29,444 nucleotides of DNA, taken from the IMG/VR virus record IMGVR_UViG_2563366842_000005; one strand, 5' to 3'. Positions 6,914 through 20,107 of this stretch are shown one piece after another. Within the stretch, counting starts at the first letter, position 1; each line of letters begins with the position of its first letter. A program made the position numbers and the translations under genes. The DNA comes from a virus (taxonomy: Duplodnaviria > Heunggongvirae > Uroviricota > Caudoviricetes). The notes beneath the pieces are model-generated. The model ran no database searches, was not told the DNA's origin, and saw only the letters and a list, made by a program, of their open reading frames with translations.

Positions 6914-7813
6914 TTATTTGATTATTTCTTTTATAAAGACTTCTTTCGGTTGGTATTTTTTATCTGATGATTTGAGCTGGTACGTTATTGTTATATCAGC
7001 ACGTACAGAAAATTTACCTGCAAAATCTGATGGGTTTACGTTGGGGCCAAGAACCATATTTACTCTTCGATCTATTAATCCAGGGATAACAGCAGCCCAA
7101 CCTTTCTCTGGATTGTCGAGGTCTAATGCACGGATTTCAACATCAACATCAAAATGATCCTGAGTATATGACTCTGGTGTGAAGACAACTTCAGTTGGGG
7201 CTTTTTTAATGGTTTCAGCGGGAATGGTCACTGTACCACCCCCTGTACCTATGACCATCGTAGATCCTTCGTCTGCCCTAGCTGGGGCAAGCGTCTTAAT
7301 GGAACTTTTGGCAAGAGTCTTCTTATTGGTTACCGTGCTTTCTATGATTGCTTGAAGACGGTCAGGTGAAATATTAGCCTCACCGGCACCAATATTGATG
7401 ATTGTATTGTTATTTGCTTCAAAGTGGGAGGTGTTGCTTGGAGCCATAGCCTTAGTTGCTAGAACTAAGCCATATCCAACCAGACCAATAACAACAGCAC
7501 CAACGAGAGCGTTTCTCATTTTCCCATTTCCGATCTTTGCATGAGCGCCAGCAAGAAACTTGTCCATTTCTTCTTGGCTACCAAAGAGGAGTTTAATAAC
7601 AATATCTTCATAAAGGCTTCCTGCTTCTAATCGCGCAACATGCACCGATATATCAAGGATATTAGCCCCTGTCAGTTCCTGCAAAACACCTTCTGATTGT
7701 TTTGCGATGGCCTCCCACCCTTGAAGGGAGGTAATCACATCTTTGATGCTTACAGGTTCTTTAGTTGAATAATATATGTTTTCGGTAAAGGTTAAAGATA
7801 ATTCTTGGGACAT
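6914..7813 (-). CDS. Uncharacterised 299-aa single-pass membrane protein in the rexAB slot (candidate superinfection-exclusion or abortive-infection protein)
   Basis: ATG at 7811-7813 with GAGGG SD. About 100-aa N-terminal soluble region, one hydrophobic helix (ALVGAVVIGLVGYGLVLAT, residues about 102-120, lysine/arginine on the N side), then a 175-aa Thr/Gly/Ala-rich C-terminal domain. Visibly AT-rich versus flanking phage DNA. Co-directional with cI, between cI and pL/OL. No family or kinase motifs recognised. Confidence 0.7.
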   Translation of the reverse strand: MSQELSLTFTENIYYSTKEPVSIKDVITSLQGWEAIAKQSEGVLQELTGANILDISVHVARLEAGSLYEDIVIKLLFGSQEEMDKFLAGAHAKIGNGKMRNALVGAVVIGLVGYGLVLATKAMAPSNTSHFEANNNTIINIGAGEANISPDRLQAIIESTVTNKKTLAKSSIKTLAPARADEGSTMVIGTGGGTVTIPAETIKKAPTEVVFTPESYTQDHFDVDVEIRALDLDNPEKGWAAVIPGLIDRRVNMVLGPNVNPSDFAGKFSVRADITITYQLKSSDKKYQPKEVFIKEIIK

Positions 7814-7926
7814 CCGAGCCCTCGCTGTTTCTTTCGATTTGCTGTGTTAAGCTAATATTTTAATATCCATGTTTCTGTTTGCTTGCAGTGTGTTTCTCAC
7901 CACCATCCAAACGTACTGGTTACTAG

Positions 7927-9121
<1,195 letters not shown>

Positions 9122-14739: not shown

Positions 14740-14824
14740 AGTCAGAGATAACAATCAACTAATACTGTTTTGCTGATTTTTGCTTGTAATTGGCGTTCTG
14801 GTCTGATTTTTGTGGAGTAAGTTG

Positions 14825-15202
14825 ATGCGTGATATTCAGATGGTTCTTGAGCGTTGGGGAGCGTGGGCGGCTAATAATCATGAAGATGTGACCTGGTCGT
14901 CCATTGCCGCCGGTTTTAAGGGATTAATTCCTTCAAAAGTAAAATCTCGCCCGCAATGTTGTGACGATGACGCGATGATCATTTGCGGGTGCATGGCCCG
15001 TCTGAAAAATAACAACAGCGATTTGCATGATTTGTTAGTGGACTATTATGTCGGCGGCATGACTTTTATGGCGCTTGCGCGTAAGCATGGTAGATCTGAT
15101 TGTTGGATTGGCAGGATGCTCCAAAAAGCTGAGGGCGTAGTGGAGGGCATGCTGATGGTGTTGGATCTCAGATTGGAGATGGATGCTGATTGTTTGAGAT
15201 AA
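14825..15202 (+). CDS. Q: Late-gene antiterminator Q (DLP12 QuuD / phage 82-type)
   Basis: 125 aa from ATG 14825 ([24 protein letters not shown]...), immediately upstream of a pR'/tR'-like region and the lysis genes; the track begins at an upstream TTG. Confidence 0.8.
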
Positions 15203-15301
15203 TTAAAGGAAAAGTTGCTGTCTGGTTATCATTAGACTAATGTTTCAAATGTTAGAATCGCAACGTAGTTATGATCATATAACAGCTTGTTCCCTGATTT
15301 A

Positions 15302-15330
15302 GCCAGCCTCCCCAAAGGCTGGTTTTTTTT
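15302..15330 (+). terminator. tR'-like rho-independent terminator downstream of Q
   Basis: GCCAGCCtccccaaaGGCTGG followed by eight T. A TAGAAT hexamer at 15254-15259 would give a roughly 65-nt pR' transcript ending here. Confidence 0.6.
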
Positions 15331-15358
15331 CTAATAAGTATCAATCCGGTTAGGTATT

Positions 15359-15883
15359 TTATTGTTTGACCCATAATAGTTCATTGACATTGAATCCCAA
15401 TTTTTGAGCAGTACGCACATAGTCTGCTTTTACATTATCTGGAATAGTTGGAGTCCGTGCCAGAATCCATAGGTATTCTCTGTTCGGACCACTGACAAGA
15501 GCATACTTATACTCATCATCCAGTTTGATTACATTATAGCCACCATAGAAGGGGCCAAAAAACGAAACCTTCAACGCTGCAGTTGTATTATCTCCTGTAA
15601 AGTATGCTTTACCTTCGCTCTCGCTCCATTTGTTTTTCGTTGGGTCATATCCACGATTAAGTACACTAATCCCTCCGTCGTTCCGTTTCCCATAAGTGGC
15701 GCTGACCTGTTCCAGACCACGTTCAAATCGGTTCTCAAGCCGAGCTATTTCATACCATTTTCCGAGGTAGCGGTTGGTGTCAAAATTTGTAATCGGCTGC
15801 ACACCTTTAGGTGGTGTCGGGGCCTTACATGCTATCAGAGTGAAAGAGAGTGCAATGCCAGTCAACACAGGCCATAACTTCAT
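15359..15883 (-). CDS. blc: Blc-like bacterial lipocalin, outer-membrane lipoprotein
   Basis: 174 aa with lipoprotein signal and lipobox (MKLWPVLTGIALSFTLIAC) and the lipocalin motif NFDTNRYLGKWYEIARLENRFERG; roughly two-thirds identical to E. coli Blc by eye. Opposite strand to the late operon. Confidence 0.85.
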   Translation of the reverse strand: MKLWPVLTGIALSFTLIACKAPTPPKGVQPITNFDTNRYLGKWYEIARLENRFERGLEQVSATYGKRNDGGISVLNRGYDPTKNKWSESEGKAYFTGDNTTAALKVSFFGPFYGGYNVIKLDDEYKYALVSGPNREYLWILARTPTIPDNVKADYVRTAQKLGFNVNELLWVKQ

Positions 15884-16075
15884 AATATATCCTGTACTTT
15901 TGATAGTTGAGAGTAAGTATTAAAGATAGATGATTACTACCGATCACCTAAAGAACTTTCCTACTATATTAGGAATAGTCCATAACAAAAAAATTGTCAG
16001 TGATGACGGCAGAAAGGCAGTTTAGGTCGTGTACTACACTGTTAACCTGTTAATGAATTAGTCAAGGGGTAGGCA

Positions 16076-17035
16076 ATGATAAAAAAACCTGTCGTTGGGA
16101 TCAGTGGTTGTTTGGCCGGTTCTTCTGTCCGTTTTGATGGTGGTCACAAAAGAGCTAGCTTTTTAATGGACAAATTACTGGAATGGGTAACATTCAAACC
16201 AGTATGTCCGGAAATGGCTATAGGGCTTCCAGTTCCGCGTCCTGCTCTACGTCTTGTTCGCTCGGCGCAAGGAAATATACGGATGTGTTTCAGCCACGAC
16301 CAGAATGAGGATGTTACAGAGAAAATGACAGAGTTTAGTCGTTCTTATCTTGACAAATTAAAGGATGTATCGGGATTTGTGGTTTGTGCAAAATCTCCTA
16401 GCTGTGGTATGGAACGCGTGCGTGTATATGATGAAAATGGTAATCGTGGTCGTAAAGATGGAGTGGGACTATTTACGAGCACGTTGATGGAAAGGTTTTC
16501 CTGGCTACCGGTTGAAGAGGATGGGCGACTACATGATCCAGTGCTTCGTGAAAACTTTGTTGAAAGAGTATTTGCTTTACATGAGCTCAATCATCTTTAT
16601 AAAGCGAAATTATCAAGAAGGGAATTATTAGCTTTTCATAGCCGTTATAAGCTTCAGTTGTTGGCGCATAGCCAGGCCGGTTATAAAGAGATGGGGCCAT
16701 TTGTGGCTGCAATACATGAGTGGGCAGACCTTGAATCATACTTTGAGGTGTATCGTGAGAAGCTGATGGCGATTCTCAGAAAACCTGCATCACGTAAAAA
16801 TCACACGAATGTGCTGATGCATATACAGGGATATTTTAGTAACTGCTTAAATACACGTCAGCGTAAAGAGTTGAGCGATGTTATACTTAACTATCGAGCT
16901 GGCACGCTACCTCTTCTTGCGCCATTAACTTTGCTGAAGCATTACTTGGCAGAGTATCCTGATGATTATTTGCTTATACAGAATTACTTCCACCCCTATC
17001 CTGATGAACTGGCTCTAAGACTCTTGGTGAACTAG
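16076..17035 (+). CDS. Two-domain protein: Cys-containing DUF523 (TudS/YbbK-like) N-terminal domain fused to a DUF1722 (YbgA-like) C-terminal domain
   Basis: 319 aa, ATG 16076 with AAGGGG SD. N-terminal region carries conserved-looking cysteines (GISGCLAG, VCPEMAIG, CAKSPSCGMERV) as in DUF523 Fe-S proteins; C-terminal half is helical and basic. Domain assignment is from memory and needs an HMM search. Confidence 0.55.
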   Translation: MIKKPVVGISGCLAGSSVRFDGGHKRASFLMDKLLEWVTFKPVCPEMAIGLPVPRPALRLVRSAQGNIRMCFSHDQNEDVTEKMTEFSRSYLDKLKDVSGFVVCAKSPSCGMERVRVYDENGNRGRKDGVGLFTSTLMERFSWLPVEEDGRLHDPVLRENFVERVFALHELNHLYKAKLSRRELLAFHSRYKLQLLAHSQAGYKEMGPFVAAIHEWADLESYFEVYREKLMAILRKPASRKNHTNVLMHIQGYFSNCLNTRQRKELSDVILNYRAGTLPLLAPLTLLKHYLAEYPDDYLLIQNYFHPYPDELALRLLVN

Positions 17036-17353
17036 GCGTTTGGAATGCACCAACAAGATGATTTTCTCCTTAGAGAATGTTTACAATCGTAAAAACTTCA
17101 CTATGATATCTATAGTTGTACAGTTTGTAAAAAAATTCGGTTCATGCTTAAGGTAATGTTAATATGTTAATTAATGATTAATAATCAAGCAAGCCAAAAA
17201 TAGTTCTGTTTAATCTAGTATTACATAAATATTTTAAAGAAAATATCAAAGTTCATGATGATATAATGAGATTTTTCTCATTGAAAATATGGCAATTTTA
17301 ATATTTCCACCTATACTTACTTAACTCAAATCTAATTATGTCAGGTGGATGGT

Positions 17354-18085
17354 ATGCCATGCATATGTTCTATCATTTTGGTTTTGAACTCGTTTGATAT
17401 CCGGCTTGGTAAAGAAAAAATCTCTCTAAAAAAAGGAAGTGTTGTTGCTATAGAATACAATTTAAAAGTTTTCTTTTCTTCAAATAAAGATAATATAATG
17501 ATCGTGGATATTGAAGAGAAAACAGTTAATGACTTCTTTAAAAACAATACACTCTCACCTTTTTCTGTAAGAAGATTTTATTCAGCATACTTGATAGTAA
17601 ACTGTACAGACTATTCATTGTTAAAGAACTTGATAGGTTGCTTGAATTGTGATGGTGAAACTACGGCTGTAGTTAAAAATTCAATATTATTTGCATGTCT
17701 TGCTATTTTATCCTCGGAAAAAATGTTTCAGAGTTTTTTGTTTGGGTGTCTTAATAGTTTAGGAAGCAAAGTTAAGGCTATTATTCACTCGGACATATCT
17801 GCAGCATGGAGACTTTGTGATATTTCTTCAAGACTATGTCTGAGTGAAAGTTTGTTAAAAAGAAAACTAAAACACGAAGGCTTATCATTTAGCAAATTAA
17901 TTCTTGAAGAACGAATGGTGATGGCTGAAAGGTTATTAAGCTACAATTTCTATCCTGTTGGGAAAGTTGCTAAAATATGTGGTTATGAAAGCGCGTCATA
18001 TTTTATAAGTGTTTTCAGAAGATATTTTGGTGTTCCCCCCCATGAATATTCATCAAGATTTTTTTTAGAAAAAGGCAAGATGTAA
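17354..18085 (+). CDS. AraC-family transcriptional regulator (AppY/EnvY/Rns-like)
   Basis: C-terminal AraC-type HTH region (KVAKICGYESASYFISVFRRYFGVPPHEY). Very AT-rich gene with an AT-rich upstream region. Start ambiguous: ATG 17354 after an AGGTGGA SD, or GTG 17345. Confidence 0.75.
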   Translation: MPCICSIILVLNSFDIRLGKEKISLKKGSVVAIEYNLKVFFSSNKDNIMIVDIEEKTVNDFFKNNTLSPFSVRRFYSAYLIVNCTDYSLLKNLIGCLNCDGETTAVVKNSILFACLAILSSEKMFQSFLFGCLNSLGSKVKAIIHSDISAAWRLCDISSRLCLSESLLKRKLKHEGLSFSKLILEERMVMAERLLSYNFYPVGKVAKICGYESASYFISVFRRYFGVPPHEYSSRFFLEKGKM

Positions 18086-18147
18086 CGTGATGCGTTTTGA
18101 TGATTTTGTAATTTTCATATTTGATGATTATATGATGCTTTCAGCTA

Positions 18148-18177
18148 CGCCAGAATAATCGCTGGCGTTTTTCTTTT
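18148..18177 (+). terminator. Rho-independent terminator after the AraC-family gene
   Basis: CGCCAGaataatcgCTGGCG followed by TTTTTCTTTT, between the regulator gene and the holin. Confidence 0.5.
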
Positions 18178-18252
18178 CTAATGTAACTTCTGTATCTTTC
18201 CCTCTTTCATTCCAAACCGTGTACACCATCCGTTATTCGCGGAGGTGAGGCT

Positions 18253-18468
18253 ATGAAATCCATGGACAAGTTAACAACGGGCATTGCCTACGGCACCTCT
18301 GCAGGCAGTGCTGGCTACTGGTTTTTACAGTGGCTTGATCAGGTCAGTCCGTCACAGTGGGCGGCGATTGGAGTGCTTGGAAGCCTTGTGTTGGGTTTTC
18401 TCACTTATCTGACAAACCTTTATTTCAAGATTAAAGAAGATAAGCGTAAGGCTGCGAGAGGTGAATAA
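18253..18468 (+). CDS. S: Class II holin (phage 21 S-type pinholin; DLP12 EssD-like)
   Basis: 71 aa [31 protein letters not shown]... with dual-start motif (MKSM) and two TM segments; first gene of the lysis cassette. Confidence 0.85.
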
Positions 18469-18965
18469 TGTCGCCATCATTACGCAAGGCTGTAGCAGCT
18501 GCTATTGGTGGTGGGGCTGTTGCCATAGCGTCTGTGCTCATCACTGGTCCGAGTGGTGACGATGGTCTGGAAGGTGTCAGCTACATACCATATAAAGATA
18601 TTGTTGGTGTATGGACTGTATGTCACGGGCATACAGGAAAAGACATCATGCTCGGTAAAACGTATACCAAAGCAGAATGCAAAGCACTCTTGAATAAAGA
18701 CCTTGCCACTGTCGCCAGACAAATTAACCCGTACATCAAAGTCGATATACCGGAAACAACGCGCGGCGCTCTTTACTCATTCGTTTACAACGTGGGTGCT
18801 GGCAATTTCAGAACATCGACGCTTCTTCGCAAAATAAACCAGGGCGATATCAAAGGCGCATGTGATCAGTTACGTCGCTGGACATATGCTGGCGGTAAGC
18901 AATGGAAAGGTCTCATGACTCGTCGTGAGATTGAGCGTGAAATCTGTTTGTGGGGTCAGCAATGA
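18468..18965 (+). CDS. R: SAR endolysin (T4-lysozyme-family muramidase with N-terminal signal-anchor-release domain)
   Basis: 165 aa; Gly/Ala-rich weakly hydrophobic N terminus ([20 protein letters not shown]) followed by lysozyme catalytic region ([22 protein letters not shown]); start overlaps the holin stop. Confidence 0.9.
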
Positions 18966-19423
18966 ACAGAGTAACCGCGATTATCTCCGCTCTGGTTATC
19001 TGCATCATCGTCTGCCTGTCATGGGCTGTTAATCATTACCGTGATAACGCCATTACCTACAAAGCCCAGCGCGACAAAAATGCCAGAGAACTGAAGCTGG
19101 CGAACGCGGCAATTACTGACATGCAGATGCGTCAGCGTGATGTTGCTGCGCTCGATGCAAAATACACGAAGGAGTTAGCTGATGCGAAAGCTGAAAATGA
19201 TGCTCTGCGTGATGATGTTGCCGCTGGTCGTCGTCGGTTGCACATCAAAGCAGTCTGTCAGTCAGTGCGTGAAGCCACCACCGCCTCCGGCGTGGATAAT
19301 GCAGCCTCCCCCCGACTGGCAGACACCGCTGAACGGGATTATTTCACCCTCAGAGAGAGGCTGATCACGATGCAAAAACAACTGGAAGGAACCCAGAAGT
19401 ATATTAATGAGCAGTGCAGATAG
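18962..19423 (+). CDS. Rz: Rz inner-membrane spanin (i-spanin)
   Basis: 153 aa from ATG 18962 with N-terminal TM and coiled-coil-like body; overlaps the endolysin stop; contains the embedded Rz1 gene. Confidence 0.85.
19182..19364 (+). CDS. Rz1: Rz1 outer-membrane lipoprotein spanin (o-spanin), embedded in Rz in the +1 frame
   Basis: 60 aa [24 protein letters not shown]... with lipobox and a proline-rich stretch ([15 protein letters not shown]); AAGGAG SD 7 nt upstream. Confidence 0.8.
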
Positions 19424-19454: not shown

Positions 19455-19748
19455 TTATTGTGAGCAATAGACACGCGCTTCCAGCGGAGTATAAATGCCT
19501 AAAGTAATAAAACCGAGCAATCCATTTACGAATGTTTGCTGGGTTTCTGTTTTAACAACATTTTCTGCGCCGCCACAAATTTTGGCTGCATCAACAGTTT
19601 TCTCCTGTCCAATTCCCGAAACGAAGAAGTGATGGGTGATGGTTTCCTTTGGTGTTACTGCTGTCGGTTTGTTTCCAACAGTAAACGTCTGTTGAGCACA
19701 TCCTGTAATAAGCATTGCCAGAGCGGCAGAAAACAACATTTTTTTCAT
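19455..19748 (-). CDS. bor: Bor lipoprotein (serum-resistance, Iss family)
   Basis: 97 aa from ATG 19748 (MKKMLFSAALAMLITGCAQQTFTV...); lipobox ITGC; position and orientation as lambda bor. Confidence 0.85.
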   Translation of the reverse strand: MKKMLFSAALAMLITGCAQQTFTVGNKPTAVTPKETITHHFFVSGIGQEKTVDAAKICGGAENVVKTETQQTFVNGLLGFITLGIYTPLEARVYCSQ

Positions 19749-20107
19749 CTTATTATCCTGCATTGTTAAAAACGGCAGAATCCTATGTGACAACAATTAA
19801 ACGATAGTTAAATGGATTGATGAAAATTAAAACTATATAGGTGGATGCTCAGCCTATTGGAGGAGGGGGGCACTCAGAATCCTGTGGAATGAAATAAACC
19901 GCTCTTTCTGTCCATTACCCTTTTAGCTGCGCTGTATCGTCGCCGTATTCCCGCATTAACCATGACCGTAGCCCGACGGGGAATTCCTTCTGCGTGAGTG
20001 TGCGGGAATAATCAAAAACGATGCACACCGGGTTTTACTGTGCTGACAGACGCAGGGTTACCCTCATAGTCGCTTTTCCGGTGCGATGGTGGAAGAAACC
20101 GGGATGT

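Follow-up and report, generated by a model that had tools for sequence, protein, structure and literature searches.

A probable tRNA 4-thiouridine desulfidase gene (rudS) carried by a lambdoid temperate phage of Escherichia coli

The window analysed here, a stretch of 29,444 nucleotides of viral DNA, carries a gene that very probably encodes RudS, a tRNA 4-thiouridine desulfidase ("eraser"), as cargo of a lambdoid temperate phage of E. coli. The product of the open reading frame is identical in 319 of 319 residues to gp66 of Escherichia phage 1H12 (H3V29_gp66, YP_009909557.1), which is the protein called "RudS_vir" and listed with Cys12, Cys44, and Cys110 in Table 1 of Jamontas et al. (Nucleic Acids Res 2024, PMC11417400). 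RudS was defined there as the group of TudS-DUF1722 fusion enzymes that strip sulfur from the 4-thiouridine (s4U) of tRNA (PMC11417400). The viral gene was synthesised, and E. coli BL21(DE3) cells that overexpressed RudS_vir had less s4U in their tRNA; with all six RudS proteins tested, RudS_vir included, the s4U of bulk tRNA went down 4.7- to 26-fold (PMC11417400). The feature is already known, this exact phage protein having been named and assayed in 2024. The remaining value of the analysis lies in the annotation gap, in the frequency of the gene in E. coli, and in what an s4U eraser does for a temperate phage. The features of the region are collected in Table 1.

Table 1: Features of the rudS region (positions are those of the window).
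Feature	Position	Strand	Basis or remark
Late antiterminator Q (PF06530)	14810-15202	+	Start in the phage 1H12 annotation is the equivalent of 14825
Q-blc intergenic region, 156 bp, conserved	15203-15358	+	Terminator scan, column identity
blc, outer-membrane lipocalin lipoprotein, 174 aa, divergent from rudS	15359-15883	-	Pfam Lipocalin_2, NCBIfam
blc-rudS divergent intergenic region, 192 bp, 35% GC	15884-16075	.	AT-rich
rudS coding sequence, 319 aa plus stop	16076-17035	+	ATG 16076, TAG 17033-17035, single uninterrupted ORF
TudS catalytic domain (2-thiour_desulf, formerly DUF523, PF04463), aa 7-149	16094-16522	+	Pfam
Cluster ligands Cys12, Cys44, Cys110	16109-16111, 16205-16207, 16403-16405	+	Residues read from the translation
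DUF1722 (PF08349) helical domain, aa 192-309	16649-17002	+	Pfam
AraC-family regulator resembling YdeO/GadX, 32% GC	17345-18085	+	HTH_18, HTH_AraC (Pfam); phrog_1450
Holin S (18253-18468) and endolysin R (18468-18965)	18253-18965	+	First genes of the lysis cassette, limit of the cargo slot

Domains and catalytic residues

A Shine-Dalgarno-like purine-rich stretch, AAGGGGTAGG, is located immediately 5′ of the rudS start. The initial annotation had described the product as a fusion of a DUF523 domain and a DUF1722 domain, and both assignments were confirmed by Pfam at the positions given in Table 1. The N-terminal domain matched PF04463 with an E-value of 3.6e-40 (137.7 bits against a cut-off of 34.7) and the C-terminal one matched PF08349 with an E-value of 1.3e-40 (138.8 bits against 22.5), the latter along the entire profile (1-117 of 117), so that both scores are four to six times the curated cut-offs. 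The three motifs quoted in support of the first assignment were found exactly, GISGCLAG at residues 8-15, VCPEMAIG at 43-50, and CAKSPSCGMERV at 104-115. The C-terminal half had also been called helical and basic, and this agrees with modelled helices that span residues 155-291 and with a pI of 9.1 for residues 151-319, which is mildly basic.

In addition to the three cysteines, the rest of the published catalytic set, Glu46, Arg55, Ser107, and Ser109, is present. In an alignment of 69 diverse homologues (representatives with 34-55% identity) Cys12, Cys44, and Cys110 were each at least 90% conserved, as expected from the Fe-S ligand pattern proposed beforehand, and the same level was reached by each of the other four residues. 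Ser239 and Arg240 of the DUF1722 domain were invariant in a second alignment (A2). A scan for distant phage RudS proteins with A2 gave, among the best 80 of 140 matches, only E. coli-type copies with at least 92% identity. Substitution of the cysteines in RudS homologues abolished activity in most cases (PMC11417400).

A sequence search of the PDB returned only TudS (6z92, E-value 8.9e-5, residues 7-119), in an alignment that covers the first two Cys motifs and the SPSCG motif. The AlphaFold2 model was of moderate confidence (mean pLDDT 73.4, pTM 0.71), with low-confidence stretches at residues 13-28, the loop around Cys12 (pLDDT below 50), and at residues 293-319. The N-terminal domain of this model matched TudS 6z96/6z92 with a Foldseek probability of 1.00, TMt of 0.64-0.67, and 25-28% identity. 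The TudS domain was the only part of the model that matched, and the C-terminal helical domain gave no significant match against the PDB.

If the mechanism described for the family applies, as the identity of the residues suggests, a [4Fe-4S] cluster would be held by Cys12, Cys44, and Cys110 in the TudS domain, and its fourth, unligated iron would bind the thione sulfur of s4U. Glu46, Ser107, Ser109, and Arg55 would then carry out a non-redox hydrolytic swap of sulfur for oxygen, leaving uridine. The helical DUF1722 domain, whose role as a tRNA-binding (anticodon-region) module is taken from the published work (PMC11417400), would dock the tRNA near the anticodon region, and with this docking the substrate would be s4U8/9 in tRNA rather than free thiouracil. 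In this way the prophage copy would give E. coli an s4U eraser that is missing from its core genome.

Phage setting and transcription

Deposited genomes of lambdoid phages (Jouyvirus: 1H12, Lambda_ev110, and others) agree with positions 1-20505 of the window at 99.9-100% identity. The window is a temperate phage of the lambdoid type, with its genes in prophage order. The left end has integrase and excisionase, followed by exo/RecT/gam/kil, SieB, N, a cI-like repressor, O, P, the nin genes, and Q; after Q come the reverse-strand blc, rudS, the AraC-family gene, the holin/endolysin/Rz genes (18253-19423), Bor, and the terminase and head genes. With this identity to phage genomes and with its location between Q and the holin, the gene was rightly called phage-borne from the beginning. 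A literature search for the source publication of phage 1H12 and of the Lambda_ev isolates returned nothing relevant. The 299-aa ORF at 6914-7813 was found to be unrelated to the equally long "SMEK domain" protein of another prophage. Regarding a defence-system role, PADLOC gave zero matches for rudS, blc, the AraC-like gene, and two early-region ORFs.

The cassette order Q+ blc- rudS+ araC+ S+ R+ was constant. Among the best 80 of the 140 viral contigs, 59 loci showed it in full, and the rest were cut by contig ends or had a partial AraC-like gene. By its position between Q and the holin, its composition, and its presence in multiple prophage contexts, rudS behaves as a cargo gene ("moron") of the Q-S slot; the GC content is 42.7% in rudS and 31.6% in the AraC-like gene, against 48.8% in the window. 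Of the two companions, blc was well defined by Pfam Lipocalin_2 (E-value 2.2e-43) and by the NCBIfam Blc subfamily model (315.5 bits against a cut-off of 267). The AraC-like gene, which starts at 17354 in the phage annotation, scored 112.7 bits with the NCBIfam YdeO model, well below the cut-off of 348. A literature search on a blc/DUF1722/AraC prophage cassette gave nothing relevant. Joint chromosomal capture of blc and rudS finds no support, as the rudS loci of Citrobacter and Salmonella have no lipocalin, AraC-like, or MerR neighbour.

In Stx phages the slot between Q and the lysis genes is occupied by the toxin genes, which are read through by Q-antiterminated late transcription. In the present phage the Q-blc spacer had a mean column identity of 96% among alleles that diverge by 8% in rudS, and the terminator scan located in it a GC-rich terminator-like hairpin (15301-15324) followed by a T-run. 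This spacer is a candidate late-promoter/tR′ module, and possibly the terminator of blc too. The same scan found no terminator between rudS and the AraC-like gene, the next hairpin being at 18147-18168, after the AraC-like gene. Considering that rudS is on the late strand and that no terminator is met until this hairpin, Q-antiterminated transcription should cross rudS at induction. Late co-transcription of rudS after induction would be expected from the lambdoid architecture, and the gene may also be expressed in lysogens from the 192-bp region upstream of it.

That upstream spacer contains an 18-bp near-perfect palindrome, TTCCTACTA/TATTAGGAA, at 15958-15975, a candidate site for a promoter or operator belonging to rudS itself. 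Between 14700 and 18500 there were 12 sigma-70-like matches and 11.3 were expected in shuffled sequence; since such matches are no commoner than chance, the scan lends no support to an independent rudS promoter. The sole promoter-like match within the blc-rudS spacer (15907-15934, 9 of 12) was likewise at chance level. LexA boxes (CTGT-N8-ACAG, with at most one mismatch) were searched for in 15150-18300, where the sole match was inside coding sequence, and no exact box was present in the whole window. No MerR/LitR regulator or photolyase gene was found in the matching phage annotation or among the scanned ORFs of the window, so that the light-responsive regulation of bacterial RudS is not evident for the phage copy. 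Such a light-related neighbourhood is common among RudS genes but is no defining trait of the group.

Distribution, role, and substrate

We found rudS in 1082 of 5426 complete E. coli genomes (about 20%), in 110 of them at 99% nucleotide identity or more and in 971 at 90-95%. The second of these groups corresponds to another rudS allele, with 92% protein identity. The 3.1-kb cassette was at least 80% covered in 975 genomes, and the prophages that contain it were seen in three chromosomal contexts: adjoining ybhC, carrying emrE/ybcK, and carrying hokD/rem/ydfU. In a degraded, IS-riddled prophage both Q and blc had been lost to IS elements and rudS was still intact. In IMG/VR, 140 viral contigs contain relatives, and the best 80 all encode an intact protein of 319 aa in which no residue of the catalytic set is missing. 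Comparison of the two phage alleles gave a dN/dS of about 0.10, with dS about 0.29, and rudS is under purifying selection.

E. coli is said to lack RudS, both in the original work (PMC11417400) and in a 2026 review (PMC13602947). For the laboratory strains used, K-12 and B, this is true, but it is not true for the species. The carriage of prophage rudS by about 20% of E. coli and the purifying selection on the gene are thus two additions to the literature. Taking into account that around one fifth of the strains have a prophage s4U eraser, the UVA growth delay and the measurements of s4U may be strain-dependent, and the prevalence of the gene bears on differences among strains in UVA response and in s4U levels. 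As for its origin, the closest relatives outside E. coli are chromosomal proteins of 319 aa in Citrobacter, Klebsiella, Enterobacter, Serratia, Salmonella, and related genera, with 71-76% identity. The Citrobacter rudS sits among ordinary chromosomal genes, and that of Salmonella Derby adjoins ttcA and a DUF1367 gene. Lambdoid phages appear to have taken up their rudS from an enterobacterial genome.

UV induces lambdoid prophages, and UVA crosslinks s4U8 to C13 in tRNA, with slower translation and higher ppGpp as the outcome. A benefit to the lysogen, with UVA or stress tolerance and less s4U-dependent growth arrest, seems to us about as likely as not. Family data show that removal of s4U shortens the UVA-induced growth delay that depends on the s4U8-C13 crosslink (PMC11417400). 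Overexpression of RudS_KT brought this delay down to about 60 min, from a starting value of about 105 min; RudS_KT, and not RudS_vir, was the only protein assayed for the UVA phenotype, and the RudS activity data come from plasmid overexpression throughout (PMC11417400). The intact rudS of the prophage without Q and blc, together with the usual company of blc and an AraC-like regulator, makes us lean toward host benefit.

A mainly lytic-phase role, in which usable tRNA and a damped stringent response would be provided during UV-triggered induction, is possible with a lower probability, and it is compatible with a benefit to the lysogen. We consider it rather unlikely that RudS is a working part of the phage induction programme instead of host-benefit cargo. 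If it were so, a late s4U eraser would keep the tRNA pool usable and the stringent response damped while the late proteins are made, and a larger burst size or a shorter latency might be seen in sunlight-exposed hosts.

It could also be argued that rudS is a neutral hitch-hiker from an enterobacterial chromosome, silent in the lysogen and in the lytic cycle and useless to phage and host. The region is AT-rich (35% GC upstream and 26% downstream of the gene) and could be silenced, and the neighbouring AraC-like gene is frequently frameshifted or replaced by IS elements. We hold this to be improbable in view of the best 80 of the 140 viral-contig copies, which are intact with every catalytic residue at the low dN/dS given above, and of the 1082 genomes that have the gene in prophages at different chromosomal sites. 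The late-operon position, moreover, would make transcription at induction hard to avoid, judging from the lambdoid architecture.

Regarding the substrate, the protein could act mainly in a TudS-type salvage of free 4-thiouracil, 4-thiouridine, or 4-thio-UMP, the effect on tRNA being a side activity of overexpression. The N-terminal domain is a genuine TudS fold, and RudS_vir was well expressed yet weaker on tRNA per protein level than its chromosomal orthologues (PMC11417400). In a uracil auxotroph on 4-thiouracil, RudS_vir gave slow and delayed growth with the shortest lag among the RudS proteins (PMC11417400), and these two observations taken together suggest that its substrate preference may be shifted. 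However, no RudS rescued the uracil auxotroph to the level of TudS, and none of them sustained growth on 2-thiouracil; every fusion lowered tRNA s4U, which stand-alone TudS, and likewise YbgA, did not do (PMC11417400). The tRNA-binding DUF1722 domain is, in addition, kept and conserved in a gene with whole-gene dN/dS of about 0.1, and a salvage enzyme of this kind is very improbable.

From these data it is possible to delimit what had been proposed in the initial annotation. A desulfurase acting on thiolated nucleobases was right, with the refinement that the substrate is s4U at position 8/9 of tRNA and not 2-thiouracil, on which no RudS sustained growth. Of the suggested alteration of thiolated pools, the tRNA part stands, as the identical RudS_vir lowers s4U, and the nucleotide-pool part is at most a side activity.

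In RefSeq the protein goes under "YbgA family protein" or "DUF523 and DUF1722 domain-containing protein". With PRK10167, the YbgA model of NCBIfam, only residues 160-315 matched (E-value 3.4e-56), with 189.6 bits and an equivalog cut-off of 237, so that the first label under-describes the gene; as the labels stay unchanged, automated readers will go on rediscovering rudS. A YbgA orthologue, that is, a non-catalytic DUF1722 protein, would agree with that label and with the extent of that match, but the score is below the cut-off, the architecture already refutes the reading by an extra complete TudS domain with all the catalytic residues, and YbgA alone has no s4U effect (PMC11417400), which leaves it a negligible probability.

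Comparison with known systems

The preferred reading of the gene as a phage-borne RudS can be placed beside the systems already described. YbgA of E. coli K-12 (b0707) is a stand-alone DUF1722 protein, homologous to the C-terminal 160 residues of the phage protein and with no catalytic domain. TudS (PDB 6Z92/6Z96) shares its fold and its three-Cys [4Fe-4S] site with the N-terminal domain of RudS; it differs in having no DUF1722 and in acting on free thiouracils and 4-thio-UMP. The phage protein as a stand-alone TudS (about 150-170 aa, with growth on 2- and 4-thiouracil) was rejected, since it is a two-domain fusion of 319 aa.

The biochemically and mutationally dissected reference is RudS_KT (Pseudomonas putida PP_0741), which has the same architecture as the phage RudS. 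Of the residues described as essential in it, Cys17/49/114, Glu51, and Arg60 correspond by position to Cys12/44/110, Glu46, and Arg55 of the phage protein, and Ser111/113 and Ser243-Arg244 to Ser107/109 and Ser239-Arg240. At two positions published as tRNA contacts the proteins differ, RudS_KT having Tyr25 and Asn26 where the phage RudS has, again by position, Phe20 and Asp21. RudS_KT is encoded in a light-inducible phrB-litR-rudS operon (PMC11417400), whereas the phage copy is not.

The chromosomal RudS proteins of Enterobacterales resemble the phage copy more closely, with 319 aa, the two domains, and Cys 12/44/110 (Table 1 of PMC11417400), and every catalytic and tRNA-contact residue checked is invariant between them and the phage protein. 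RudS_ST (STM1389/ORF319) is the published Salmonella example (PMC11417400). These genes are chromosomal, while the phage rudS is in the Q-S slot, and a MerR-family regulator is described beside rudS of Salmonella and Enterobacter cloacae (PMC11417400), in whose place the phage cassette has the AraC-like gene. The nearest system of all is phage 1H12 itself, with 99.9% nucleotide identity over positions 1-20501 of the window and the same Q, blc, AraC-like gene, and holin as neighbours of rudS. The window differs from it in its prophage gene order and in an additional IS5-family element of about 1.2 kb, inserted at roughly 7.9-9.0 kb, well away from rudS.

Distribution of rudS in Escherichia coli and Salmonella

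By searching the genome collection, rudS was detected in 1082 of the 5426 complete E. coli genomes. The copies are carried by lambdoid prophages in at least three chromosomal contexts (loci L002-L004), and RefSeq labels the product "YbgA family protein". Both the paper describing RudS (PMC11417400) and a 2026 review (PMC13602947) state that E. coli is devoid of this protein; nevertheless, the prevalence found here runs counter to these published statements.

In the two Salmonella enterica contigs, the rudS copy is flanked by ttcA, a gene of tRNA 2-thiocytidine synthesis, and by a DUF1367 gene. Considering that ttcA serves as an attachment site for a prophage in E. coli K-12, and that DUF1367 is phage-associated, this location would suggest that the Salmonella locus may be a prophage remnant too.

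Features of the window and of the Salmonella rudS loci (window coordinates unless a locus is named)
Feature	Position	Strand	Description
299-aa ORF	6914-7813	-	immunity region, between N and repressor
IS5-family transposase ORF	7959-8975 (element about 7900-9100)	+	338 aa; DDE_Tnp_1 and DUF772
GC-rich hairpin followed by T-run	15301-15333	+	in the spacer separating Q from the 3' end of blc
blc	15359-15883	-	outer-membrane lipocalin Blc, 174 aa, prophage-borne copy; NCBIfam Blc subfamily score above cut-off
Near-perfect 18-bp palindrome	15958-15975		TTCCTACTA/TATTAGGAA; divergent blc-rudS intergenic region
AraC-family regulator gene	17345-18085	+	immediately 3' of rudS
Bor-family lipoprotein gene	19455-19796	-	PF06291; serum-resistance type cargo; downstream of lysis cassette
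rudS, S. enterica	L009 6001-6960		74% identity
rudS, S. enterica	L010 3704-4663		74% identity

The neighbourhood of rudS

Among the viral contigs examined, taken from the best 80 of 140 IMG/VR matches, the lipocalin gene blc was invariably linked to rudS. Its transcription runs against the late operon and therefore blc must have its own promoter. The palindrome lying between the two divergent genes is a possible operator; it is kept in the second allele class, whose RudS shares 92% protein identity with that of the window, and one of the two copies compared had a single-base change. On the other side of blc, the spacer that separates it from Q and contains the hairpin was 96% conserved across alleles. 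This hairpin is a candidate for tR' of the late promoter region, for a bidirectional terminator serving blc, or for both.

The AraC-family gene has a very low GC content (31.6%) and was assigned to phrog_1450. The top NCBIfam models for its product were YdeO and GadX, with scores far under the respective cut-offs (112.7 bits against 348 for YdeO). The protein may be related to AppY, PatE, and Psr, prophage-encoded regulators of acid resistance and virulence. In several E. coli prophage copies this gene was frameshifted or IS1 was found in its place, with rudS intact. As for the Bor-family gene, its presence at such a position is ordinary in lambdoid phages.

The immunity region compared with phage 1H12 and lambda

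The IS5-family element separates the 299-aa ORF from the cI-like repressor gene, and its insertion might affect the expression of the immunity region. Phage 1H12, a near-identical deposited lambdoid phage, is devoid of this insertion of approximately 1.2 kb, which accounts for the offset of 1199 bp between the coordinates of both sequences. The 299-aa ORF had no match in Pfam or PADLOC, its sole match being phrog_4506. This ORF occupies the position where lambda has rexAB and is a candidate for a function in exclusion or defence.
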